Part shown: positions 713 through 37,028 of the stretch, in pieces | Layout: every line of letters starts with the position of its first letter | How positions within the stretch are numbered: the first letter of the stretch is position 1 | Origin: a virus | Taxonomy: Duplodnaviria; Heunggongvirae; Uroviricota; Caudoviricetes | Virus record (IMG/VR): IMGVR_UViG_2690316076_000004 | Direction: 5' to 3' (one strand) | DNA length: 37,028 bases | Made by a program: the position numbers and the translations under genes | The notes under the pieces: generated by a model | The model's database searches: none | What the model saw: only the letters and a program-made list of their open reading frames with translations | Told to the model about the DNA's origin: nothing

Positions 713-980
713 AAACTGGAGAATCAAACATGTTAGCTTTTATCTCATTCGTGGGAGGTAGTCTCACAACTATGATTAGTCTTTCTTGTCTTGTCGTTAG
801 TATGGGGTGAGCAATGAAACAATTTCATGATGGCATTTCATCTAAGACATTCAAGAAAGAATATAGCGGATTGTGTATTAACTGGATTGATTTGATTGGT
901 GCGGTTGTGTTTGGTCTGGTAATTAGCATCAATTTTTAACGATATAAATATATCGTAATTCATTCAAAGAGGATTCAATT

Positions 981-1322
981 ATGAAAAAGACTATCTACGC
1001 AATTATTGTTTCTGTGTGTGTTGGTGGCATCGGTGGATTTGTTTGTGGGTATGACTATTCCGATACTCAACATCAAGAGACTATCCGGTCAAATAAGGCC
1101 GAGATTAAGGATCTGAATCAGGAGATTAGCCAGTTAGAAAATGCTCTCTCACTCAAAGACAGTGAATATAGCGAGGTTTATGCAGATAAACAAAAATATT
1201 GGAAAGAGAAAGATAATCTCGTTGTTTACGGGATGAAATTGTGTAAGAGCATGAAGGACGAGCGCAGTTGTTTAATGGAACTTGCCCTTAAAGGTAACGT
1301 GACCATCGACTTCAAAGACTAA
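981..1322 (+). CDS. membrane-anchored coiled-coil protein (i-spanin-like or superinfection-exclusion-like)
   Basis: N-terminal hydrophobic helix (IYAIIVSVCVGGIGGFVCG) then coiled-coil-type region; AAGAGGA RBS. Confidence 0.55.
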   Translation: MKKTIYAIIVSVCVGGIGGFVCGYDYSDTQHQETIRSNKAEIKDLNQEISQLENALSLKDSEYSEVYADKQKYWKEKDNLVVYGMKLCKSMKDERSCLMELALKGNVTIDFKD

Positions 1323-1351
1323 TTAATTCAAATAACAAAGAGGATTCTATT

Positions 1352-1597
1352 ATGAAAAAGATTATCGCTGGTATCGTTCTTGCTCTGGGTTTGGTTGGTG
1401 CTGCAAATGCCGAACAATATGTACAGGGTGATAGTGTCAAGCGTGCTGCCGTTGCACCTTCTTTAAATCAACTGTGTACTGAATTAGCACAGGTTGCCGG
1501 AGTTGGTGACGATGACGACTTTATTACTGCGTGTGTATGGAGTCATATCGAGGATATTAATAAACGTGATGCAAAACTAACTGGAAAGAAATATTAA
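1352..1597 (+). CDS. small secreted protein with signal peptide
   Basis: MKKIIAGIVLALGLVGAANA-E signal-peptide pattern with AxA site; 3 Cys in mature part; no lipobox Cys; same leader/RBS as the 981 gene. Confidence 0.55.
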   Translation: MKKIIAGIVLALGLVGAANAEQYVQGDSVKRAAVAPSLNQLCTELAQVAGVGDDDDFITACVWSHIEDINKRDAKLTGKKY

Positions 1598-1613
1598 TGA
1601 CTTACTAACCAAT

Positions 1614-1653
1614 GCCCCTATCGTTATAATACGCGGTAGGGGCGTTTTTGTTT
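1614..1653 (+). terminator. putative intrinsic terminator
   Basis: GCCCCTA...TAGGGGC stem followed by GTTTTTGTTT. Confidence 0.5.
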
Positions 1654-1662
1654 GGAAATGGT

Positions 1663-3342
1663 ATGAAAACTAAACTGTATTCGTATATTCGCTTCTCGTC
1701 TATGCGTCAGAATGATGGTTCGAGTTATGAACGACAAATCAGGATGGCGAGAGAGGTTGCGGCAAAGTATGACCTTGAACTGGTAAATGATTATCAGGAT
1801 CTGGGTGTATCTGCGTTTAAGGGTGCTAACTCTAAAACAGGGGCGCTATCTCGTTTCCTTGATGCAATTGGTAGATCCGTTCCTGTTGGTAGCTGGCTAT
1901 TCATTGAAAACTTGGACCGCTTATCCCGTGCCGATATTGTCAGTGCGCAGGAGTTATTCCTTTCAATCATCCGTAGGGGGATAACCATTGTTACTGGCAT
2001 GGATAACAAGATCTACTCGCTGGATACTGTTACCGCTAACCCGATGGACCTGATGTTCTCCATCCTTTTATTCATCCGTGGTAATGAGGAAAGCCAGACT
2101 AAGCGCAATCGTACTAACTCAAGCGCACTGATTAAGATTAAAGCTCATCAAGAAAATCCACAAAATCCGGCAGTGGCAATCGAGGAAGTTGGAAAGAATA
2201 TGTGGTGGACTGATACCACTTCCGGTTATGTGTTGCCTCATCCTACATACTTCCCTGTTGTTCAGGAGATTGTGGAATTACGGAAGAATGGACGTTCAAC
2301 CGCCGAAATACTGGATCACCTTAACGAGACATATACACCGCCACCAGCAGTAAGCAACAAGAAGCATTCAAAATGGTCACGGGCAATGGTTGAAAGGTTG
2401 TTCCATACCCGCGCTTTGATTGGTATCAAGGAAGTCTCTGTAGATGGTGTTAACTATGAGTTAAAGGATTATTACCCTCGTGTTATTGATGATGCTACGT
2501 TCTATCACCTTAAGAAAAATATTGGTGCTAGAGCATGGAACTTTGGAGACAAGGAAGAAGTTAAACCGATCCCCCTGCTTAGTGGTATTGGCCTATTGAA
2601 ATGTGATCATTGCGGTTGCGCTATGGTTAAAGTGAAGGGAACGAACAAACGTTCTGACCAGTATCGTTATACATGTGATGCGACCCGTTCACGTAGACTT
2701 GATTGCGAGCATCCAAACTGGAGTTTTCGAGGTGATCAATTAGAGAAAGCTGTATTGCAATTGCTGGCTGATAAAATATGGATTGCTGAGGACAAGGCTA
2801 ATCCGGTTCCGGCGTTGAAAGTACAGGTTGATGAAATATCACGCAAGATTGATAACCTGATTGCCCTTTCTGCTATGACAGGAGCAACGAAGGAGCTAGC
2901 CGATCAGATTACTACCCTCAATAGCGAGCGTGAAACACTCTACAATCAGATCAAGATGGCAGAAGAGGAAATGTATTCTGTGGACTCTCAAGGCTGGGAG
3001 AAGCTCGCAGAATTTGATTTAGAAGATGTTTATAACGAGGAACGACTAAAGGTCCGGTTTAAGATTAAGCAAGCTCTAAAGCGGATCGGGTGTAGCAGGA
3101 TTGACAGAAACAAAAACTTGTTTGTACTGGAATACATCGATGGAAAAACCCAGAGAGTTGTAATAGAAAATTCAAGAGGAACGAGGAAAGGCCGGATCTT
3201 CATTGATTTGAAGACTATCAATGATAGGCAGATTCTGGAGAGCAACGGGCTTGTTCTGCATCCATGTTTAGACATGCTGACAGATAAGAACTGGAAACCA
3301 GAAGAGGAAATACCAGGTCCATTACAGGAATTTGGAATTTAA
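1663..3342 (+). CDS. large serine recombinase (resolvase/integrase family)
   Basis: N-terminal resolvase catalytic pattern (YSYIRFSS...Q), recombinase domain, Cys-rich zinc ribbon (CDHCGC...CDATRSRRLDCEH), C-terminal coiled-coil; track start at 1648 is TTG, ATG at 1663 preferred. Confidence 0.85.
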   Translation: MKTKLYSYIRFSSMRQNDGSSYERQIRMAREVAAKYDLELVNDYQDLGVSAFKGANSKTGALSRFLDAIGRSVPVGSWLFIENLDRLSRADIVSAQELFLSIIRRGITIVTGMDNKIYSLDTVTANPMDLMFSILLFIRGNEESQTKRNRTNSSALIKIKAHQENPQNPAVAIEEVGKNMWWTDTTSGYVLPHPTYFPVVQEIVELRKNGRSTAEILDHLNETYTPPPAVSNKKHSKWSRAMVERLFHTRALIGIKEVSVDGVNYELKDYYPRVIDDATFYHLKKNIGARAWNFGDKEEVKPIPLLSGIGLLKCDHCGCAMVKVKGTNKRSDQYRYTCDATRSRRLDCEHPNWSFRGDQLEKAVLQLLADKIWIAEDKANPVPALKVQVDEISRKIDNLIALSAMTGATKELADQITTLNSERETLYNQIKMAEEEMYSVDSQGWEKLAEFDLEDVYNEERLKVRFKIKQALKRIGCSRIDRNKNLFVLEYIDGKTQRVVIENSRGTRKGRIFIDLKTINDRQILESNGLVLHPCLDMLTDKNWKPEEEIPGPLQEFGI

Positions 3343-3376
3343 GCGGCCTAAATCGACGTATAACGAGCTAAAACAG

Positions 3377-3405
3377 TTAAGGGGTACATCCGTACCCCTT
3401 TTTAA
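3377..3405. terminator. intrinsic terminator between convergent genes
   Basis: GGGGTAC-ATCC-GTACCCC stem followed by TTTTTAATTT. Confidence 0.65.
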
Positions 3406-3415
3406 TTTAATTGCA

Positions 3416-4414
3416 TTAAAGAGCCTCTAAAGGGCTTAAATCGAGTTCTAAGTCTTCCGGTGTTAAATCAGCTAACGGTGCATTCATCCACTGCGATAAA
3501 TCTCGTTCTATGTCTTCATCACTAATGTAGTTGTTCAGATTGATTGCGTTGGTATCATCAAAATACATTGGCTTAGATGGGTTGATGTGGATGTATTCAT
3601 TGATGAATGATTTAACATCTTTCAGCTTGCTAATCGGTAGCGTTTCTGTGAATCCGCTATTCATTACCTTACGTGGGATTTTCTTGCCCTGAATATTCTT
3701 TTTAATCCCCATTTCTAAATCACCAGCTTTCCATCCAATGTTAAACAAATGTGAGCATTCAAAGGTGATTTTCTCGCTGGTGTGCTTCTGGTGTTCTCTT
3801 ACCCGTTGCATCGGATCTTTGCGAGTGGTAATTCCATATTTGAAAAACTTCTCGCCAACACGAATTAGATAAAAGTGCATAGGGCGCTGTGCAAACTTGT
3901 TTCTGATAACCTGTTTTCTACCATTCTGAATTGATTTAAGTACACCCCTAACCAAAGGGCATGTTAACCCGCCTTGTCTGCGGTTATTGTGTAAATCACC
4001 TTTCTTGTGAATCTTTCCGTGGCACTTACAACGAAGAATTAGTTTAGTGTCAACACCCTGATAAGGTTCAGCCAGACCTAACACATCCCACCCTATCGGC
4101 TTGTAGAACTTGCGAGCGTTTTCTAAGTGTTCTTCTTCGGTAAATCTAAACTTCTTCTTAGGCGGTGATACTCTATCTTTGCCAGTAAACTGACCAGTTA
4201 GAACATGACTAATACATGGCGTTTTAACCTTTCCATTAACTTCTATGCAAACTTTAGTGTTCTGGAATGGTTTCTTTACAGGAAGCACAAAACCACTGTA
4301 TAACCATCCATGCGCTTGACAAACTTTAATGATTCTGGTTTCATATTCGACCGGAGGGGTCGCACGTTTGCTTTTTGCGGTAAATTCGATATCCTTTGCT
4401 AAAGTAGTATTCAT
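3416..4414 (-). CDS. T5orf172 (GIY-YIG-like) domain protein with Cys/His cluster; putative homing-endonuclease-like DNA-binding protein
   Basis: segment HFYLIRVGEKFFKYGITTR...MQRVREH resembles T5orf172/GIY-YIG-like fold; CKCHGKIHKKGDLH...CPL Cys/His cluster; family assignment from memory. Confidence 0.5.
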   Translation of the reverse strand: MNTTLAKDIEFTAKSKRATPPVEYETRIIKVCQAHGWLYSGFVLPVKKPFQNTKVCIEVNGKVKTPCISHVLTGQFTGKDRVSPPKKKFRFTEEEHLENARKFYKPIGWDVLGLAEPYQGVDTKLILRCKCHGKIHKKGDLHNNRRQGGLTCPLVRGVLKSIQNGRKQVIRNKFAQRPMHFYLIRVGEKFFKYGITTRKDPMQRVREHQKHTSEKITFECSHLFNIGWKAGDLEMGIKKNIQGKKIPRKVMNSGFTETLPISKLKDVKSFINEYIHINPSKPMYFDDTNAINLNNYISDEDIERDLSQWMNAPLADLTPEDLELDLSPLEAL

Positions 4415-4450
4415 AGTAGTGAATCCTCAATAAAATAATATTCACTACTA
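4415..4450 (-). promoter_or_regulatory. 5'-UTR stem-loop masking the translation initiation region of the 3416-4414 gene
   Basis: perfect inverted repeat AGTAGTGAAT (4415-4424) / ATTCACTACT (4440-4449); GAGG RBS lies in the loop next to the 3' arm, ATG directly after the stem. Confidence 0.5.
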
Positions 4451-4460
4451 TTTATAAGAA

Positions 4461-4862
4461 TTAATTATTGTAGTTTTGGAAACCAGTAAGATCGCAAAAT
4501 GAATCAGTGTCATGTGCTGGGGAACGATGTTCTGCTTCGTCAGAGAAAATGTTGGCTACCGGAGATTCTACTTTAACTTCCGGTGCTTCTTCAACATCTG
4601 ACTTAACTTCTTCGACCACTGGTTCAACTGCTGGAGATTCTTCTTTTGTTTCTTCAATGACGATCTCAGGTTCTTTCATTGCTTCAACCAGAGACGGATC
4701 AACTTCGTCGAATACCACTTTATCATCTGCGGTATATTTGTCTATAATGAAAAAATGGTCAGAAATATAGCTAACGTCGCCAGCATATTCTAACAAAAAA
4801 GCGCCCACTAGAGGCGCTTTTGTTTTATCCATTCCACCGTGATTTTTTTGATCTGGAATCAA
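4461..4862 (-). CDS. acidic low-complexity protein (E/V/P-rich); start uncertain
   Basis: track start at 4862 is TTG and the first 12 codons overlap the endolysin 3' end and a terminator hairpin; in-frame ATGs at 4832 and about 4679; poor RBS. Confidence 0.3.
   Translation of the reverse strand: MIPDQKNHGGMDKTKAPLVGAFLLEYAGDVSYISDHFFIIDKYTADDKVVFDEVDPSLVEAMKEPEIVIEETKEESPAVEPVVEEVKSDVEEAPEVKVESPVANIFSDEAEHRSPAHDTDSFCDLTGFQNYNN
4797..4821. terminator. bidirectional intrinsic terminator after endolysin gene
   Basis: AAAA-GCGCC-N7-GGCGC-TTTT with T-tracts on both strands, immediately 3' of the endolysin stop. Confidence 0.6.
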
Positions 4863-5178
4863 TATGCGTAAAGGTTTTATATTTTCCTAAGCCGTATTGA
4901 GTAGGATATTTCCCATCAAGATAAGCATGAACAATATCAGGCGAGACACCCTTGATAACAATGTCAGCCGCGCGGCCTCGAACGTGATAGCTATTGGCTG
5001 CCCCGCCTACATTCTTGTTATGAGTCGGGCAACGGTTGCCACTGTTAATAATCACTGGTTTACCGAAGTGCTCTCGTACATCCTCAAGAATCACCAGTAA
5101 TTCAGCGTCGATTGTATCATAATCACATTTTCCGCATTTACATTTAAATTCCTTGCGAGAAAAATGCTTACTTAACAT
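4825..5178 (-). CDS. endolysin, peptidase M15 family (L-alanyl-D-glutamate peptidase-like)
   Basis: zinc-ligand pattern SYHVRGRAAD ... THID typical of M15 phage peptidases; AAGGGGG RBS. Confidence 0.7.
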   Translation of the reverse strand: MLSKHFSRKEFKCKCGKCDYDTIDAELLVILEDVREHFGKPVIINSGNRCPTHNKNVGGAANSYHVRGRAADIVIKGVSPDIVHAYLDGKYPTQYGLGKYKTFTHIDSRSKKSRWNG

Positions 5179-5187
5179 ATTACCCCC

Positions 5188-5535
5188 TTAGATCATTTCG
5201 AAGATATAACCAATAAAGCGCATACCCTTGATATAATAAGGAGCAGTGCCTACACACACCGCGCGTGCATCGCCCAGACAGTTAAAGCTATAAGGATTAA
5301 CCACATCAACTTCTTGTCCGACACGAAAACGATACTTAGGACGTTTAGCCAATGTAGCGACACAAAACACGGTCCCTTTTTCATGATCGCGGATACATTC
5401 TTTATATTGTTTATGTTTAACTCTCTTCGCCTCAAAATCATGTGTCATAGATTCTGGGCTAATGCCATTAATAAAAATACCGGAAAGCTGATCGACCGGA
5501 TAAGTAGGAAATTCAGTGAAAATATTTTTAGCCAT
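5188..5535 (-). CDS. hypothetical protein
   Basis: 115-aa ORF with GGGGG RBS; no recognisable motif. Confidence 0.55.
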   Translation of the reverse strand: MAKNIFTEFPTYPVDQLSGIFINGISPESMTHDFEAKRVKHKQYKECIRDHEKGTVFCVATLAKRPKYRFRVGQEVDVVNPYSFNCLGDARAVCVGTAPYYIKGMRFIGYIFEMI

Positions 5536-5573
5536 GTTATACCCCCATAAGTTTCTATGAGGGTATTTATGGA

Positions 5574-17829: not shown

Positions 17830-20800
17830 TTAACCAAATAATTTTGCTTCAATAGCAGCAAGACGTTCACGAAGGATTTTATTTTCTTCGCTCATTTCTT
17901 GAATTGCTTTGATTAAAAGCGCGTTCACTGCGGAGTTTGAAATTGTTAAAATCTCTTCTGGGTTATCAAGACCACCAATTTTTGCGGTTTTAACAGCTTC
18001 CGGTAATACCTCTTGTAAATCCTGTGCGATAATACCAATCTCATGACCTATAACTTCTCGGTCATTAAGAGATTTAACTTTATCGTAGGTTTTAACTTTG
18101 AGTTTATTTACCTTATCTACCGCATTTTCTTCGTAGTCTTCAACATTAATTTTCAGACGACGGTCGGAACGAATATACACATCGTTAAAGTTACCATTAC
18201 CTGGAGAATAGAAAGTGCCATCATGATGGAACTCGTAGACAGCTTGAGGATGACCAGCAGCAGGTGAGTTTTCCGCAGATCCAACACGAATAATTGCTTG
18301 TCCCCAATTGTTGGGGACACGACGCATACCAAAATCGACGGCAGTTGTATACCCTTGATTGGTTATTAAACTTCTTCCTTTGATAATCGGATAATAACAG
18401 TCCTGTGAAACATAACCATGATCGACGAATATTGGAGCTTCTAATGACCATTGGTCATTCCATGCGCCAGATTGGCTAGCAGTCCAACGTTCACCGTGAA
18501 CATAGAATCGAACGTTATTGACATGAGTCATTTCGACGCCTTTCGGACTTAGCGCGATATCCCCCGCATTTGTAATGTTTATGGCAGCATTAGTAGCATA
18601 GCTATAGAACGCTAATCCATTATCAGCGCCACCTTTACCGATATACCAGTTGTTATTATCAGCACAAGTACCCAACAAATATATAGACGAATCTCCACTT
18701 TCGGCATTCATGATGATTGCGTCAGATCCACGATTAACTTTCAGTTTCCCGAAAAATGTGTTTTTAATGGTATTATCACCCAATCGTTCAAATTCTGCGA
18801 AAAATCCTTTTGAGTCACGAAGACTTAAAACGTTATTTCGACCTGTATTGCTTGCCCCCCAATGGACGAGTTCCATATAGTCCATAGATTGACGAGAACC
18901 AGCTTTAAACAAAAGGTTGTCTTCGAGACGAGTGCTACCATCAATCCCAAGATGTAAACACCGAGCGGTCGTTGTGCCCCCTAGATCCAATCCACCCTCA
19001 GCGAAATCATAACTAAATGGTCTACGATTATTCCAATTTCCAAAAGAATCTTTTAAATCGGTAGTCAGTATATGGAAACCAGTACCATCATTTCTAAAAA
19101 TTAAGCCATAATTGCCACCTTTAACAGCCAAACGCGCATTTTCAGATAATGCAACTTCGCTATTCATTACAATTTTCTGGCCTTTACCACCAGTAATATG
19201 TAATTCACCATCTTCAATCAGGTTTATCGAGTTTTGACCGTTATCGTTCCACCAAATAAAATCTTTGGTCTGACCATCACCGAAGCCAAACCAGCCATTA
19301 CGAACATCTGTACCAGTGCGATAATCAAAGAAGTTTAAATGACATGATTCATTTGGACCACGACGAAAATCAATTGCTGAGTTTCCACCTAAACCGCCAT
19401 CAATGGTCATTCTACGAATATGCAAACCGGATGCAGCCGACAGCAATAATTGTTGGTTTACATCATCGTATCCAGTAGCAAGACGATAATTCTGATCATC
19501 TACAGTTTCATGCCAGATAGTAGCGGGTGCGGAACTACGGAAGCGACGCAACTTTTTCTTAGCATTTGTTTGTTGTTCGTTCAAATGCTCAATGTCATAT
19601 TGGCCTTGATGGTTTCCACCAAAATTTAACGTTCCACGGTTGCTAAAGTTATTGAATGATGAAATGTTAAGAGCATCAAAAATTTCATCTGCAACAGGTT
19701 TTTCACCACCCAGATATTCAGGAGTATCCAACAGGTTTAAAGAAACACCACCGGACGAAACTTGATATTCTGCTAAAACAAATCCTGTATGTGCACCGTA
19801 GTAAGCGTAAAGATCGTAATTATCGCCATCGGTAGGAATTGCGCAAAAATATTGTTCGTAATACCAAATGCTATAATAAGCATTGAATACAACACCTTTC
19901 GGGCTATTGTTGCCGCAACGGATCACCAGTTCAATAACATTGGCTTGTCCATTCTGTCCGACGTTATAACCGTTACCACCAACCAAACGAATCTTAGCGG
20001 TGCGACCGTGTTGTTGTGGCATTGTCAAAGTGCCTAGTTTAAACCAACCGCCCTCGATACCAAAATTAAGCGTCTTCTGGAACAGTCGGTCAATTTCTGC
20101 TTTCGAATATGCGCCAATTTCGGCAGGAGTAGGTTTATCACCTTCATGATACATGCGGTGAGAATATGCCAAATGACCCAATTCATCATAGCCGTATGTT
20201 CTTACCGTAGCATGTGGATTAGACCCATAAGTGAACTCAAAACCACGAGCATGATTAACACCGGATGGATGTGGAACATGCAAGATCATAGCAATATGAT
20301 CAGCTAGATCATTGGTACGGAATGCACCAAAGTAATCAAGATTACGAGCACCTGGATCATCAAAATAGTTTGCGGTCTTAGACAGCAAATAACCATCAGT
20401 ATAAGTGTTTACGTGTTTTTTGATGTACTTACCGTCACTAGATCCATCGGCTGCATCAATACGGCTTTCTAAACGTGCAAGTTCGGAATCGGTGTAAGAC
20501 TTGTTATTGTCAACTTTGCTATGAATTGCTGAATTTTTGGCTTCAACATCACGGGTTAATGCTGCGACGTTATCCGCTGCCTCTTGCTTATTGGCTGCAA
20601 TCACACCAGTAAGGTTATTGTAGGTGTCAGTTAACTGATTTTCCGCATAGGCTTTATTTGCTGCGATAGTCCGATCAGTCTCGGCCTTAATCAAATCAAC
20701 CTTGTCATTGATTGCTTTGTCATTGCTTGCGATGGTTGCATCGGTACGGGATTTAATATCATCAACTTTTTTATTGATGCGGGTGTCCAGTTCCTGTGTT

Positions 20801-27191: not shown

Positions 27192-29099
27192 TTAGAACGA
27201 TGTTACCCAGCTACGGCCTCTATTTGGGCGTCTGGCGATGTTTTGACGTTGCGGTCGTGTGATTGGCTTAGTTTCTTCTATTTGCTCGTCAGATTGCGAT
27301 TTAGGAGCTTCTACGGATTCTTCGACAACACGGTTTAAGCTGTCTTTCATTGCAATGAGTTTATCCCATGACATTTTTGAAAGAACGTAGCGAGAAGCAG
27401 CATAGCTATAAACCAGACAGTCGAGAGCCTCGTTTCGGGTACTACCTGGATTTTTCACCCAACGCACGCCAGTAGTAGTACGCTTGATGGATTCACTCAA
27501 AAGCTGATCGAGATAATCATCAGGAACGGTTTCTGATATTTCTAAGCCAATATGAGGATTATCTTTCAGGTTTCTAACCAGCATTTCACGAACAGCGGAT
27601 TTCCCAACGTTAACACCCAGCATAAGCAATTCATGACCACCTGTACGGGTAGGTTTAACCGGAATCACTGGAGCATTACCAGATGAACTACCTTTGATAG
27701 CGTGTAGGTTCTTCCACTTGCCGCAAATACGGTATCCGGCTTGAGTGAATCGACCGTTCGATGTATCAAGGAAACTGGCGAGCATTGGTACACGTTCACC
27801 ATTAACGTTATAGAATTTGGTTTTCTTGAAGTTAACCAGACGATCCCAAACAGGTGATTCATATCGTTCACAGTTATGATCGTAAAAGCTGCGGTGATCC
27901 AGAATGTAAACCTTATCTTTCGCTACACCTAAGATGGTAGATTCTGCGCGGTCCAATTGCTGGTCAATTCCTGAGCACAAGAAAATCACGTCATCAGGGA
28001 TATTCTCGATAGAAACATCTGTTTTGAGTTGTTCCAGTTCATTTGCTTCTACTGCCGTGTCCTGATCGTCGTATACCTTGCCTAACACGGTGTTATAAAA
28101 TGATTGTAAATCAAAGGATTGCCACGCATGGCTAAAATCAACAACACAAGCGCGGATCGTGCTGAAAGGTGAATACAGACGGCTAATCCAGAATCCAGCT
28201 ACTTCACTTTCTCTCGTTACTCGCCATTCACCAGCAGCCACCGCCCTGATCCGCTCTCCTTCTGTCCATGCGTTCTTACAGTGGGGGCAAATATAACGAG
28301 CGGTATCAGGATCGGGTAAGTTCTTACCATCGATGTTACGCCATTCAAATTGAACGTTTTCCCACTCGATCACCTGGTGTTCCCCGCAATGAGGACACGG
28401 AACAAAAAACATACGCATATCGCTTGATAACCATTGCTGGTTAATGCTTCCGAGCTTACTGGTCGGGGTGCTGGATACGACTAATCGACCTTCATCGCCA
28501 AAGGTAGTTAAACGGTTAGCAGCCAGTGCCACCGGATCACCTTCTTCTGAGGCTGTAGCAGCATCGATTTCGTCAAGTAATCCAACCTTTGCGGTCTTAC
28601 CGCGTAGGGTTGATGGACTGGTAAGCGATACCATGTAAAGGAAGTGATTCGTTTTTAGCTGTAGCTGGTTATTGTTGTTAACCGCATTGCGATCATTCTT
28701 GTCTGTAACAACGTCTTTTAATGCATCACATGCTTCGATAGACGGTCGGATCTTACCAGCGAGATATTGAGACATTTCTTTAGCGGTTGATTGTCCGATA
28801 ATCATATTGCATGGATCGTTAGCCATCTGGTTAAACAGGATACCGTTCAGGATGGTAGTCTTTCCGATCTGTGCACTGGTCATCAGGACATACTTTTTCT
28901 TGTTCTCAAGGAAAGGTGCATCAATCATGCCTTTTTGGAATGACAACAATTTAACTTTATCCCCAGCTTGAGGACCATCTACCAGCACCATATTCGCTTC
29001 GCACCATTCAGACGGAAGGAGTTTAGGCGGTGGAGTGATATATTTTGCGGCATTTTTAAGAATCTTTTTTAATTTGGCCTTGTTCGAAATCAGTTTCAT
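27192..29099 (-). CDS. terminase large subunit, lambda gpA-like
   Basis: [26 protein letters not shown] (Walker A-like), [21 protein letters not shown] all mirror remembered gpA motifs; ATG at 29099 with GAGGG RBS preferred over track start 29174. Confidence 0.93.
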
Positions 29100-29142
29100 G
29101 TAATTACCCTCATTACGAAATATGAAGGTATTTATTAAATTG

Positions 29143-31184: not shown

Positions 31185-31273
31185 AGTAAAAATTCCCCTT
31201 AAACGGTTTAATGATTTGGTCCTCCTAGTTCCGGCATCACCACCGGAACAATTTTATTTATAATAGAAATTTA

Positions 31274-31726: not shown

Positions 31727-32185
31727 TTACAGCATATCTAAGCCTTCATCGTAACCGTAGAAGCCATTCTGAGAAGAGAAACAGATTGGAGCGTAGTCTT
31801 CGTCTTCCTCATCTTCTTCATCTTGTTCTGGGGCTTCCTGAGCGGGTTGTTTACCGTAATCAGCCATAATCTGGTCAAGATCGGCGATCCCATAGTAAGA
31901 GCCTAAATCAACATCGTATTCACGAACATCAAACGGCAGGTCATCACGAACAATAATTGCTGGTAGATTCTGGTATTGTTCACGATCTTCATCAGTGAAG
32001 CAGTCAACTACCACCGTAGGACGACCATTGCGTTTAAGAGCATAGAAAGCAGTTGAATAGTTGGAGTCTTCGGAATGACGAATGATGTTATAACCACGAT
32101 TAGCGAAAACTTCTAGCATATGGAAGTTGCCGTAGTTTTCAGAGTCCAGACCCAGAAGTACGAAAGGAGTTTTAGTATTGATCAT
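31727..32185 (-). CDS. acidic protein (C-terminal Asp/Glu run)
   Basis: 152-aa ORF with AGAGGA RBS; C-terminus EAPEQDEEDEEDEDY. Confidence 0.55.
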   Translation of the reverse strand: MINTKTPFVLLGLDSENYGNFHMLEVFANRGYNIIRHSEDSNYSTAFYALKRNGRPTVVVDCFTDEDREQYQNLPAIIVRDDLPFDVREYDVDLGSYYGIADLDQIMADYGKQPAQEAPEQDEEDEEDEDYAPICFSSQNGFYGYDEGLDML

Positions 32186-32766
32186 AGTGGTATCCTCTAA
32201 AAAGAAAGTGAATCAATCTAATATTATTTATAAAGAGAAAATTCTTGTTATTATGAAAGGTGATTGGATTCAGTCGGCTTCGCCTCCTTCATGATTTTTG
32301 ATTAAATCATCGTCAAAACGAAGAAGTATCTTTAGAATATAAGAATCTTTCTTTTGGAGAAATAATAATCAGGAAGCAATTTAGCAACCGAAGGTTGCAA
32401 TCCCGAAGGGATACCAATACCTTTCATGATCATTAAAGTGATTATTACTATCTTTCTAGAATCAGTTAGTAACTAGTTTAAAATCCCTTTCGAGAAAATC
32501 CTTTCAGAAGTGATTCTCGATGCCACGCAGTGGCGTCGCAGACGTTTGAGAGTGAGCGAAGCGAGCGAGCAAACTAGTTAATTCCTTCTAAGACCATCTA
32601 GTATCATCTAGTTTAAATTAGTTGTTACTAGAAGCAATTGGTTGGCGCTTCGCGCAGTCGGGCTAAAGCCCTCCTAATATCTTTCTGGTTATTTGTTGTT
32701 TTTAGTTTTACACATGAGCGTAGCGAATGTGTTATATAATATCTATGCACGCCGAATCCCTGCTTT

Positions 32767-33010
32767 TGCCCCTCGCTAAGTTAATGTTTTATAAAGAGTT
32801 TTTCTCACCAATTCCTTTCAGGGGCAAATTTCAGGGGCAAAAATTAGATTTTCAGGGGCAATTATTGGCATTTCAGGGGCAAAAATGAGGGGCAAAATCA
32901 CCGTTTCCCAGAATTTCAGGGGCAAAAATATAGGGTTTCAGGGGCAAAAATGGGATGTGGAATCTAGGGGATTTTGGTTCAGGGGCAAAAATTCAGAATT
33001 TCAGGGGCAA
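32767..33010. repeat. iteron-like array of TTCAGGGGCAA
   Basis: exact 11-mers at 32817, 32830, 32851, 32872, 32915, 32937, 32978, 33000, variants at 32886 and ~32963, one inverted core at 32767-32775; spacing mostly 21-22 bp or multiples. Confidence 0.85.
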
Positions 33011-33100
33011 TTCCCATCAAATATTTTGATAGAAAATTCCTGTATATTATTTAATCAAAAAATCACCAAAAAGCGGCGTAAGTTAATGATTTAAAAAGAA

Positions 33101-33126
33101 TTGTCAAAAGGTCTCCGTGCTATAAT
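33101..33126 (+). promoter_or_regulatory. possible extended -10 promoter
   Basis: TTGTCA then TGC-TATAAT (TGnTATAAT) at 33118-33126; -35 spacing suboptimal (14 nt). Confidence 0.3.
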
Positions 33127-33206
33127 AGGTTATAAAGGTTGATAATCCTGCTCTACCATTTTCAAACAAAAATTTTGATAGTCATTTCTCGCTTAGGTCA
33201 AGTGTA

Positions 33207-33235
33207 TTGACAACTGTCAAGGATTATTTTATACT
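33207..33235 (+). promoter_or_regulatory. strong sigma70-type promoter
   Basis: TTGACA (33207-33212), 17-nt spacer, TATACT (33230-33235); overlaps TTGACAA/TGTCAA near-palindrome. Confidence 0.5.
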
Positions 33236-33371
33236 TTTTCTCACTGGTGGGGGTTGAAATTTTCTAAACAGTCCCCATATAGATGATAAGCAAGAATTTC
33301 CACGTTATAAATACATGTGTGAAATGATTGTTCACTTCTGAAAATCTCCTGATTCACTGCTAATTCATACA

Positions 33372-33400
33372 GCACTGGTTAGATATACAGTGCTTTTTCG
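33372..33400 (+). terminator. hairpin + T-tract (leader terminator/attenuator 1)
   Basis: AGCACTG-GTTAGATATA-CAGTGCT followed by TTTT. Confidence 0.4.
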
Positions 33401-33457
33401 GTTGAATATTGTACGAATTGATTAATAATTAATCTTCTCTTTAGCAATTCGTGCTCC

Positions 33458-33484
33458 CACTGATCGGATATACAGTGGTTTTAC
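33458..33484 (+). terminator. hairpin + T-tract (leader terminator/attenuator 2)
   Basis: CCACTG-ATCGGATATA-CAGTGG followed by TTTTA; same CACTG..GATATA..CAGTG architecture as 33372. Confidence 0.4.
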
Positions 33485-33523
33485 AGGGTTTTCTGAAAAT
33501 CATTTTATAAATACAAGTGTTCA

Positions 33524-33544
33524 GAGCGAAATGCTCTTTTTTAA
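33524..33544 (+). terminator. hairpin + T-tract directly upstream of small HTH gene
   Basis: AGAGC-GAAAT-GCTCT followed by TTTTTT, about 20 nt before the RBS of the 33578 gene. Confidence 0.45.
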
Positions 33545-33577
33545 GAAATTATTAATCCACATGTGAGGAATCGACTG

Positions 33578-33757
33578 ATGGCTAGACCTGTTAAGTTCAC
33601 TCGTGAAATGATTGTTGATATTGCTAAACGCTTTTACAGCGACACTGAGCGAGGCGGGGAAAACTTCTTTAAGAAGGAAGGAATTGATAGAAGCGGATTC
33701 TACAAGCTAATGAAGAAATACGAAATTCAGGTAAAGATTAACGTTCAAGTTTGTTAA
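33578..33757 (+). CDS. small HTH protein, paralog of 29816-30046
   Basis: ATG at 33578 with TGAGGAA RBS (track start 33563 is GTG); sequence parallels the 76-aa protein. Confidence 0.5.
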   Translation: MARPVKFTREMIVDIAKRFYSDTERGGENFFKKEGIDRSGFYKLMKKYEIQVKINVQVC

Positions 33758-33871
33758 TCCACTTTCACTGAGAATTATATGATGGCTTTAAAAAAGAAAA
33801 AGCCTCCTTTGCTGCAACAAGGGAGGCTTGAAATGAACAATTAAAACTAACTTTCCACAGGAGTATTTATA

Positions 33872-34834
33872 ATGTTATTTTCCGCTAACTTTTTCACTAA
33901 CGAAGTAACCAACGCTAAAGCAGTTATCAAATTTGGCACCGAAGCAAACAAGAAGATTCAGCCGAAAGTTGTTGCTCATGTTTCCTTTGCGCAGCAGAAA
34001 TCCGCTTTCGCTGGCTTTAAAGCACATCGTGAAGCACTGATCGCGGCTGGCTTTGGTGTTGACGGTAAACTGCCTAACGGCATTCGTAAAGCAATCGACC
34101 GCGTTAAACCTGCTAAAGACGTTGCAGTAGACCACATCGTTACTTTCACCGTTAAGAACTCTTCTGAACTGTTCCACCTAGTGATTGCTGGTGATACTGC
34201 TATCGTTTCCGCTCCTAACATGGATTTTCAGGATACCGCTGATTGCAACATTACCTTTGGTCGTCGTAAAGAAGTTACCGGAAAAGCTAAACTGAACTTC
34301 ACCAAATCCGGCAATCCTTACTTTGCTGTATTCTTTAACAGCCACGCTACTGAGAAAGAAGTAGTAGAACTGGTTGCATATGAAGGTGAAGAAAAAGCAC
34401 GTATTGAATCTTGCGACGCTTTCGTAGAACTGGAAGCACAGGTTAATGCTGTTTCTCCGGTTGCTGTTGAAGATCGTTTCTCTGCACTGGAAGCACAGAT
34501 CGCAGAACTGAAAGCTGCACTGAAAGAAAAAGACCAGATCATCGAAGCACAGAAAGCTGAGATTGAAGAACTGAAAGCTAAAGAAGTTGCTCCGGTTGCT
34601 GTTGAAGCAGATCGGGAAGTTGAATCTAAAGACTTCTTTACTCAAGCGGTTGAATCTAAAGACAAACAAGCTCTTTGGATTCTGCTTAACGAAAAGCGTA
34701 CTGTTGCAGACGTTGCAGAATGGAACAAATACCTGATTAAGAAAAATGGTTCTTCCGTTCAATTCATCGATTTAATGACAGTTAAAGTTTTTGATGCGTT
34801 CGAAAATGTGTTCGACGTTCGCAAAGCAGCTTAA
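33872..34834 (+). CDS. hypothetical protein with host-like high-expression codon usage and central coiled-coil
   Basis: 320-aa ORF with AGGAG RBS; codons dominated by CTG, CGT, GGT, AAC, GAC, ACC unlike the AT-rich structural genes; coiled-coil EAQIAELKAALKEKDQIIEAQKAEIEELKAK. Confidence 0.65.
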   Translation: MLFSANFFTNEVTNAKAVIKFGTEANKKIQPKVVAHVSFAQQKSAFAGFKAHREALIAAGFGVDGKLPNGIRKAIDRVKPAKDVAVDHIVTFTVKNSSELFHLVIAGDTAIVSAPNMDFQDTADCNITFGRRKEVTGKAKLNFTKSGNPYFAVFFNSHATEKEVVELVAYEGEEKARIESCDAFVELEAQVNAVSPVAVEDRFSALEAQIAELKAALKEKDQIIEAQKAEIEELKAKEVAPVAVEADREVESKDFFTQAVESKDKQALWILLNEKRTVADVAEWNKYLIKKNGSSVQFIDLMTVKVFDAFENVFDVRKAA

Positions 34835-36573: not shown

Positions 36574-36722
36574 CTGCACTGATCACGTTTTAAAATCTCA
36601 CACGCGTATCAAATACCGGGGTGCCGAAAACTCCCTTTATTTCACCCGTGGAACAGTACCTTTTGATTTTGTCAAGTCTTTTTTATAAATAATCGAAAAT
36701 ATTTTTCACACGAGGGCAAATC

Positions 36723-37028
36723 ATGAAGACTAAAGATATTAAGATTGAATTTGAAACTGTTGATGACGTTCGGGAACATCGCATTGATTCTACTGGCTGC
36801 ATCTTCCAGCTTACTAACTCCCCTATTGGATTGATTATCTATGTAGCAGAAGATGACGTGTACGCTATATGGGATGGACAGGATGAGTTTAAAGGCGGGA
36901 ATAGCCATCTGATCAATACTCATGAGGGATTTGATCCGACTCCTGTCTGTATGCTTGCTTATCACGTAACACTGGATGAACTACCGGAAGCAAGCGCGCG
37001 TATCCGTAGAATGAAAGACATTAAGTGA
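36723..37028 (+). CDS. hypothetical protein
   Basis: 101-aa ORF with GAGGG RBS, preceded by TATAAATA-containing promoter-like region; stop at last bases of window. Confidence 0.55.
   Translation: MKTKDIKIEFETVDDVREHRIDSTGCIFQLTNSPIGLIIYVAEDDVYAIWDGQDEFKGGNSHLINTHEGFDPTPVCMLAYHVTLDELPEASARIRRMKDIK

Follow-up and report, generated by a model that had tools for sequence, protein, structure and literature searches.

The virus record IMGVR_UViG_2690316076_000004 of IMG/VR is a stretch of 37,028 nucleotides (nt), here called the window at its full length, and the whole of it is one complete ~37-kb integrative siphovirus-like element with its insertion site at ycdX of Escherichia coli. At the recombinase-proximal end of this element lies a gene that is best read as encoding a free-standing DNA nuclease of the homing-endonuclease kind. 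We consider it likely that this gene is gated by a promoter in the style of the bacteriophage T4 late promoters together with an RNA hairpin over its ribosome-binding site (RBS). In the proposed mechanism, RNA that reads through from the upstream operon, which holds the endolysin and an Inh-like gene, would contain both arms of the hairpin, and the hairpin would hide the Shine-Dalgarno (SD) sequence and the AUG, so that this RNA would be poorly translated. RNA from the gene's own TATAAATA promoter would begin about 6 nt past the promoter box, within the 5' arm, so the hairpin could not form and the RNA would be translated. Gated in this way, the nuclease would be made only while a polymerase form that recognises (N)ATAAATA is active. 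The (N)ATAAATA promoter class would drive nearly all operons of the element, and the combination of promoter and hairpin would guard at least four other genes, which encode a second homing endonuclease, the large terminase, the distal tail protein and the product of the gene at the head of the endolysin operon.

The analysis establishes the anatomy of the locus, the motif and hairpin statistics, their conservation with covariation, what the protein is homologous to and how it folds, purifying selection on its gene, the swapping of alleles and the Krischvirus origin of the flanking DNA. From the sequence we infer promoter activity, the start site, translational gating, the activity and target of the nuclease, and the identity of the factor that would read the promoter. 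The features of the locus are as follows.

3416-4414, minus strand: nuclease gene, 332 amino acids
4413-4451, minus strand: RNA hairpin of 12 bp, with the 5' arm at 4440-4451, the 3' arm at 4413-4424 and a 15-nt loop that contains GAGG
4425-4428, minus strand: SD sequence GAGG, where the loop meets the 3' arm, with the AUG (4412-4414) following after 10 nt
4449-4456, minus strand: TATAAATA, putative T4-late-type promoter box of the nuclease gene
4461-4832, minus strand: Inh-like open reading frame (ORF), 123 amino acids from its ATG, upstream of the nuclease gene with no terminator between the two

The unit with the Inh-like ORF is the likely source of the read-through transcripts. Over the box and the hairpin the minus strand reads ...ttcTTATAAATAGTAGTGAATattattttattGAGGATTCACTACTATGaat..., and the perfect 10-bp stem with GAGG at the loop-stem junction that was noticed in a preliminary description of this DNA was found exactly as described (4440-4449 with 4415-4424). 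When extended to 12 bp, the stem covers the final three bases of TATAAATA and, in the start codon, the AU. The minimum free energy of the hairpin was -14.9 to -15.2 kcal/mol. None of 200 dinucleotide shuffles was as stable as the 48-nt stretch (z = -4.85), and one of 200 shuffles was as stable as a 76-nt stretch (z = -3.75). An intrinsic terminator was ruled out as the nature of this hairpin, as its stem is rich in A and U, there is no U-tract behind it and the 3' arm ends in the start codon.

The preliminary description had also proposed that an AT-rich element abuts the 5' arm and that a transcript from this element would lack the arm and free the start site. The AT-rich box did abut the 5' arm in all homologues, and in the window the two overlap by 3 nt. 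By the geometry of T4, the transcription start of the nuclease gene is predicted near 4443, inside the 5' arm, which would leave 4 of the 12 arm bases in the RNA. Read-through RNA was compared with a short RNA modelled as starting 6-9 nt after the box, and the computed probability that the SD-AUG stretch is unpaired rose from 0.18 to 0.45 in the window, in agreement with the earlier proposal. Accessibility of this stretch increased 1.6- to 5-fold in nine of the 11 related loci on which the analysis of conservation and covariation was based (the window and 10 others).

The 10 other loci keep the order seen in the window, which is box, 5' arm, loop with GAGG, 3' arm and ATG. The full layout was present in 9/11 loci, whose proteins are 36-84% identical to that of the window; the exceptions were the weak-stemmed loci L011 (50%) and L012 (49%). 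The box was NATAAATA at nine homologous loci and ACTAAATA at two, and a purine-rich GAGG or AGG was found in all 11. Over the 11 loci, 84% of the stem cells were paired, and pairing went down to 20-65% in a control with slid 3' partners. Three pairs showed double changes from G-C to A-U, and there were four G·U pairs in addition. The covariation score was 0.225 vs 0.144 in shuffles, none of which reached 0.225 in 500 trials, and each of the slid controls also scored lower. The hairpin has what is seen in the T4 type: SD and AUG are paired in the predicted read-through RNA, the promoter is placed so that its predicted transcripts would lack the 5' strand, and the changes in the stem are compensatory.

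The inverted repeat could instead be an operator at the DNA level, for example for autorepression by the nuclease in the way that I-TevI acts at its own late promoter. The repeat directly adjoins the promoter box, the nuclease has DNA-binding repeats, and I-TevI is a known autorepressor, for which the work is cited in PMC3014915. We regard this explanation as improbable. The four G·U-compatible substitutions preserve RNA pairing and break DNA symmetry, and because G·U pairs suit RNA pairing and not a DNA palindrome, an RNA helix is favored over a DNA operator. Also, the 3' arm always finishes at the start codon with the RBS always in the loop, and unrelated genes of the window share the geometry of the hairpin with differing sequence.

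The promoter box was examined over the entire window. Nine exact copies of TATAAATA were found vs 2.5 expected, and 0/100 shuffles got to nine.

943, 33306, 33506 and 36684, plus strand: exact TATAAATA sites
4449, 31255, 32225, 33864 and 35857, minus strand: exact TATAAATA sites

The list of recurrences given in the preliminary description was correct for 36684 and 35857, placed the sites at 943, 33306 and 33506 off by 1-2 nt (945, 33307 and 33507), and left out those at 31255, 32225 and 33864 on the minus strand. The 7-mer core ATAAATA has 16 sites, which are the nine exact copies and seven NATAAATA variants (4 A, 2 G and 1 C at the first position). All 16 are intergenic and all 16 are oriented, either to a start codon 24-79 nt downstream or at the head of a short terminator-ended unit. 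The comparison of intergenic with coding DNA that had been suggested earlier was strongly positive. ATAAATA occurred 0 times in coding DNA, where 8.9 +/- 3.0 were expected, and 15 times in non-coding DNA, where 3.0 +/- 1.8 were expected, while the 16th site straddles a stop codon; neither value was matched in 300 shuffles. The shuffles preserved dinucleotides, and the coding DNA was taken from our own ORF-based gene calls (88.5% of the window), which were checked against the PGAP annotation of near-identical copies. In L008, a diverged relative of the element, 13/13 ATAAATA sites were likewise intergenic and oriented.

A logo of the 16 window sites and the 13 sites of L008 had no conserved -35 element, and upstream of the box only T at -14/-15 was conserved. 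A T4 late promoter is an 8-bp box from -13 to -6, about one helical turn before the start, without a -35 element (PMC2988020). Like it, the window sites have an 8-bp box that varies mainly at its first position, no -35 element and a consistent placement window-wide. The first-position variants of the window (A, C and G) fit the T4 pattern, in which there are 32 perfect late-promoter sites and 9 with A(-13), the commonest variant (PMC2988020). Judged by its placement, this putative class of 8-base box heads nearly every operon of the element.

Ordinary sigma-70 promoters were weighed as the source of this pattern, with the boxes being -10 elements (TATAAA) in AT-rich upstream DNA and the apparent regulon being a product of AT-rich intergenic sequence. 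TATAAA does agree with TATAAT at 5/6 positions, and the DNA upstream of the boxes is T-rich. The invariant core, though, is the 7-mer ATAAATA (the full TATAAATA is present at 9/16 sites) and not TATAAT, so the conservation reaches two bases beyond the six that align with the -10 hexamer. Missing from the box are the T conserved at -7, a -35 element and a TG extension, and a sigma-70 scan made no promoter call at the nuclease box. The enrichment survived when only the non-coding DNA was shuffled with its dinucleotides preserved, and coding DNA is purged of the motif. In T4, late promoters with TATAAATA require gp55 (PMC2988020). These data suggest that a sigma-70 origin of the boxes is unlikely.

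The same design was found before other genes of the window, at the following positions.

5530-5571, minus strand: second module, CATAAATA abutting a 12-bp hairpin over a GGGGG RBS, before a 115-amino-acid gene that heads the endolysin operon (z = -5.16)
11810-11858, minus strand: third module, AATAAATA and an RBS/AUG hairpin before the NUMOD3 homing-endonuclease gene at 11045-11815 (z = -4.06)
29094-29136, minus strand: fourth module, AATAAATA and an RBS hairpin before the large terminase gene (z = -3.49)
13098-13165, minus strand: terminator-like 15-bp hairpin of the distal-tail-protein gene, with GATAAATA in the loop and a GGGGG RBS in the 3' arm (z = -6.73)

The modules at 5530-5571 and 13098-13165 are kept in L008. 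The NUMOD3 gene (11045-11815, minus strand) is inserted between a DUF6950 gene and the next tail gene, and it is missing from otherwise near-identical copies of the element in strains UTME-8 and 23CRST001. A near-identical T4-like source of this second homing endonuclease was not found, and only 50-nt motif matches were obtained.

The nuclease itself was assigned by profile comparison. Its parts and the end of its gene are given here.

Amino acids about 18-75 and 93-155: CapR-like repeats
Amino acids about 175-280: T5orf172/GIY-YIG-fold domain
Amino acids 286-332 (window 3416-3556): acidic, hydrophobic C-terminal tail (PLADLEPEDLELDLSPLEAL; PLADLTPEDLELDLSPLEAL)
3379-3400: bidirectional terminator hairpin that separates the nuclease gene from the serine recombinase gene, which converges on it

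T5orf172, a subfamily within GIY-YIG, is characteristic of homing endonucleases from phages, which bind DNA through repeats of the CapR type (PMC8096241, PMC10055350). The preliminary description had called the gene T5orf172-type and endonuclease-like. Pfam itself stayed below its gathering thresholds for the 332-amino-acid protein (MUG113, E 0.076, 14.1 bits vs a cut-off of 22.3; CapR, PF21817, E 0.015, 15.9 bits vs 24.2), and the assignment was borne out by PHROG 681, 'endonuclease', which matched the protein with E 4e-20, and by an hhalign comparison of the family profile (amino acids 18-278) with the T5 endonuclease of gene T5.141, which gave a probability of 99.6%. T5.141 carries two CapR homology domains (E 2e-24). 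Within the family, 7/18 members matched CapR (best E 5e-20) and 1/18 matched T5orf172 (PF10544, E 6e-4). The nuclease therefore has profile-level homology to an accepted T5orf172/GIY-YIG member, and a GIY-YIG fold. Y182, K192, G194, R204 and E257-T258 are invariant in the 18 nuclease sequences, and by analogy only, the conserved Tyr, Arg and Glu residues would form the catalytic core. The Cys/His cluster that had been noticed earlier consists of C129, C131, H132 and C152 and sits in the second CapR-like repeat; its three Cys are invariant or nearly so. A search of the family profile against PDB sequences returned no match, and the PADLOC defence profiles gave only a 22-residue match to PD-Lambda-1 (E 0.005).

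The nuclease family is small, with 18 clusters from E. coli, Salmonella and Proteus, and a scan of IMG/VR for relatives returned solely proviral copies of the same element. The location of the gene is constant, between the endolysin-side cargo and the recombinase gene, and its ratio of nonsynonymous to synonymous substitution rates (dN/dS) is about 0.1, which is purifying selection. The C-terminal tail, which varies far less between alleles than the nuclease core does, recalls the clamp-binding tails of T4 gp33, gp55 and gp43, by analogy, and a 152-amino-acid ORF at 31727-32185 has a similar C-terminal end, DEGLDML.

The nuclease gene lies next to DNA that derives from the hoc-inh-uvsW locus of T4-like phages of the genus Krischvirus.

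4478-4735, minus strand: patch 97-98% identical to inh of Krischvirus (RB49/Phi1-like), ending 22 nt before the promoter box

What occupies this position differs among the other copies of the element. It may be an Inh' fragment that is older (75% identity), a Hoc' fragment, an N-terminal fragment of UvsW (78% nucleotide identity) or a full-length UvsW with UvsW.1, and all of these upstream-flank variants are colinear with the reverse complement of the hoc-inh-uvsW-uvsW.1 region of Phi1. The closest phage-borne homologue of the nuclease has 361 amino acids and comes from Krischvirus JK32 and Whisky, where its gene is an insertion that separates uvsW from uvsW.1. Recombinases were 99% identical where nuclease alleles were 36-57% identical, and the tail-coding end of the nuclease gene was 77-79% identical, which points to horizontal exchange of the nuclease core and places one boundary of the exchange within its 3' end. 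Of 55 E. coli genomes with a match to positions 3300-4900, 18 retained at least 80% of the nuclease gene. The gene thus shows the sporadic presence and the horizontal exchange of alleles, relative to the flanking genes, of a homing-endonuclease gene (HEG). It is best read as belonging to a lineage of the Krischvirus uvsW region that sits at a boundary of exchange between phage and prophage, and this lineage probably cuts the hoc-inh-uvsW-uvsW.1 region of Krischvirus. A cognate target would lie in Krischvirus genomes.

Several observations at other copies belong beside this history. L018 (1600-1700) and L019 (1586-1783) have no nuclease and carry an ORF of at most 65 amino acids, in which the N-terminus of the Inh-like protein runs in frame into the last nuclease codons (..KEPE joined to DLELDLS..). 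These fusion ORFs indicate a deletion at a short repeat. In L011, L014 and L024, relatives from Salmonella and E. coli, a full-length T4-type UvsW helicase gene is present (with UvsW.1 also in L014), and a second small gene with CapR and T5orf172 adjoins the nuclease gene. The tail-fibre gene of the window and three small ORFs upstream of it (16869-20380) have 80-84% DNA identity to the region that encodes the long tail fibres in Krischvirus and further T4-like phages; by this similarity, DNA has been exchanged with T4-like phages in a second tract here. GenBank PQ671644, 'Escherichia phage DCP80' (classed as a T4-like Gaprivervirus; L010, 1-26300), contains a 26-kb siphovirus-like module that is syntenic with the element at 30-54% amino acid identity and also has units of a terminator plus TATAAATA. 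DCP80 was ruled out as a genuine hybrid phage since its duplicated and inverted T4-like blocks point to an apparent misassembly, and it shows co-occurrence in one sample only.

A number of results weigh against gating of the nuclease gene by a T4-style late promoter and hairpin. The hairpins of L011 and L012 are weak, and L011 and L013 have ACTAAATA in place of NATAAATA. Even in the short RNA, the SD-AUG stretch is still only about 45% unpaired by computation. Should the upstream promoter at 5564 belong to this class and fire simultaneously, the hairpin would be no timing switch as in T4 and could do no more than uncouple dosage or silence stray transcription. The 'empty' alleles were ruled out as homing target sites, the in-frame Inh/nuclease fusions being deletion derivatives, and an intact cognate allele without the HEG was not found, as the 'empty' L018 and L019 are deletions. 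The homologue of JK32 has no TATAAATA box or RBS hairpin and has a terminator-like hairpin and GGAGG upstream instead. Finally, no gp55, gp33 or other sigma-like protein was detected in the element with Pfam, PHROGs and NCBIfam on small and regulatory ORFs or with phmmer, and a query with Phi1 gp55 (phmmer --max) had zero matches among all ORFs of at least 40 amino acids in the window and L008. T4 carries the genes of gp55 and gp33 in the genome that has the late promoters and makes use of the gp45 clamp, and no such arrangement was detected in the element.

The last point raises the matter of what would read the boxes. The window genome is an integrated prophage-like element and not a T4-like phage. 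It encodes a large serine recombinase (1648-3342), a terminase of the lambda-gpA type, a portal, a fused protease-capsid gene, siphovirus tail genes and an M15 endolysin. The element was found in 62 of 5,426 complete E. coli genomes (about 1%), and none of 50,697 genomes of isolated phages resembled it. A literature search on prophages in ycdX, prophages with TATAAATA and satellites of T4-like phages yielded no account of it. Its control region has the following features.

32186-33900: non-coding control region of 1.7 kb
32829-33010: at least nine iterons TTTCAGGGGCAA(AA), spaced about 21-22 bp
33207-33235, plus strand: strong sigma-70-like promoter in the control region
31691-31663, minus strand: second strong sigma-70-like promoter, just beyond the control region
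33306-33400, plus strand: unit resembling a small RNA (sRNA), with a TATAAATA box at its start, a terminator-like hairpin at its end and no ORF
33871-33790, minus strand: second sRNA-like unit, with a TATAAATA box at its start, a terminator-like hairpin at its end and no ORF

The iteron array is a probable replication origin, and no replication initiator was recognised in the element. Both sigma-70-like promoters match 11/12 positions. The two units without an ORF are candidate small RNAs of the element and both are kept in L008; an Rfam scan of the entire window, these units included, matched no family.

One possible explanation is that the boxes are read by a promoter-specificity factor that the element encodes and that is so far unrecognised, with the element being an autonomous temperate phage that has its own late regulon. 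The likeness to T4 late promoters would then be convergent or come from a remote common ancestor, and the logic of the hairpin would be unchanged. The element does have a full set of virion genes, lysis genes and a serine recombinase, an iteron-type origin region and several small helix-turn-helix (HTH) proteins of unknown family, and its two strong sigma-70-like promoters could drive early regulators. What speaks against such a factor is that four profile libraries and phmmer detected no sigma-like or gp55-like protein, and that the isolated phages include nothing similar although about 1% of the E. coli genomes carry the element. We hold this explanation to be plausible and somewhat short of an even chance.

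Another possible explanation, which is more tentative, is that the promoters are read by the gp55 machinery of a superinfecting T4-like phage; an element-encoded factor, this machinery and plain sigma-70 together do not take up the whole of the probability. On equally speculative ground, the whole element may be a bacterial counterpart of a provirophage, with its structural, lysis, nuclease and recombinase operons under a T4-like late promoter. Since the element would have no late sigma factor of its own, activation in this case would come from gp55, gp33 and gp45 of a superinfecting Krischvirus. Thanks to the RBS hairpins, stray transcription by the host would not lead to expression of toxic genes, and the nuclease and the adjoining Krischvirus-derived homology would cut and recombine with the helper genome. 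Krischvirus DNA is said to have unmodified cytosine. Consistent with a provirophage are the 97-98% inh patch, the UvsW genes of relatives and the 80-84% tail-fibre region, as well as the lack of a relative among isolated phages and the syntenic module of DCP80 with the same promoters.

A related possibility is that the nuclease is a domesticated weapon, which the late machinery of a superinfecting T4-like phage would turn on and which would cut that phage, in defence or in exploitation. The gene is under strong purifying selection and is fixed in its place next to that of the recombinase, whether the element is from E. coli, Salmonella or Proteus, and the protein has a conserved acidic, hydrophobic tail that is missing in the Krischvirus homologue. 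There is precedent for HEG-derived proteins in conflicts between satellites and phages, namely PLE CapR and ICP1 Odn (PMC8096241, PMC10055350). However, known defence families were unmatched, the gene is deleted from most copies, with 18/55 E. coli genomes retaining at least 80% of it, and its alleles are swapped as in selfish HEGs. We see a role as a weapon as possible but less likely than not.

Some observations concern the transcription of the ends of the element. The serine recombinase gene has no box of its own and is seemingly the third gene of an operon at 943-3342 headed by the TATAAATA at 943, so that the recombinase would also depend on a late-type promoter. The operon that starts from the TATAAATA at 36684 runs past the right prophage end (36684-37028), and the left-end genes at 1-273 and 286-672 have no promoter of their own. 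The right-end operon and these two genes would be one transcription unit only after excision and circularisation.

As a device at the level of a single gene, the putative switch is textbook T4 biology and gives a ready annotation for the nuclease gene and four other genes of the element. At the level of the element, a promoter class known to depend on the T4 sigma factor gp55 makes up the putative regulon of a siphovirus-like element that is temperate and integrated in the chromosome, that has no recognisable gp55 and that trades DNA with Krischvirus. Either a new promoter-specificity factor may be hidden among the proteins of the element that have no assigned function, or the element may be wired for expression by a lytic T4-like phage, which, if true, would be a new phage-on-phage parasitism or defence in E. 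coli. The locus also illustrates cleanly, in a natural setting, a nuclease gene placed at a boundary where a prophage and lytic phages exchange DNA.

The closest known system is the T4 late promoter with an RBS hairpin. Late promoters lie inside RBS-sequestering hairpins at e, soc, 49, I-TevI, I-TevII, I-TevIII and segB of T4 and at mobE of Aeh1 (PMC3014915). The window gene resembles them in its 8-bp TATAAATA box without a -35 element (PMC2988020), in the position of the box at or within the DNA for the 5' strand of a helix that covers the SD and AUG, and in the use of the design especially for homing endonucleases and lysis genes (PMC3014915). A silent read-through RNA and a translatable promoter-proximal RNA are a further likeness, predicted for the window gene from its sequence. 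The differences are that the window is an integrative siphovirus-like prophage without detectable gp55, gp33 or gp45, and that its upstream transcription probably comes from the same promoter class, so the hairpin may not be an early/late timer.

The protein is most like the T5orf172/CapR homing endonucleases and their 'HEG islands', such as the ICP1 HEGs, T5.141 and those like RB49 ORF238c/239c. It shares with them repeated CapR-like domains of the zinc-finger type and a T5orf172 domain, a sporadic distribution with swapped alleles at a boundary of exchange between genomes, and links between phages and integrated elements (PMC8096241, PMC10055350). In contrast to them, the window protein falls below the Pfam thresholds for both domains and has an extra conserved acidic C-terminal tail, and its gene resides in a prophage-like element and not in a lytic phage. 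The homologue gp173 of Krischvirus JK32, also present in Whisky, is alike over its full length, with 34% identity to the P0014 allele (E 1e-64) and 35% to the nuclease domain of the window, and it has the N-terminus M-x-L-x-F-A-K-D-I in common. Its neighbourhood, hoc-inh-uvsW-uvsW.1, is the same as the flank of the element gene. It differs in being without the acidic tail and in belonging to a lytic phage genome.

Provirophages such as Mavirus are the most distant comparison. The element is bacterial and not eukaryotic, it has sigma-70-like promoters and an iteron origin, and its dependence on a helper is hypothetical. If the provirophage interpretation is right, the element would resemble them in being integrated, in having its own capsid genes, in carrying promoters that correspond to the late promoter of some large lytic virus, and in being expressed on infection by that virus.

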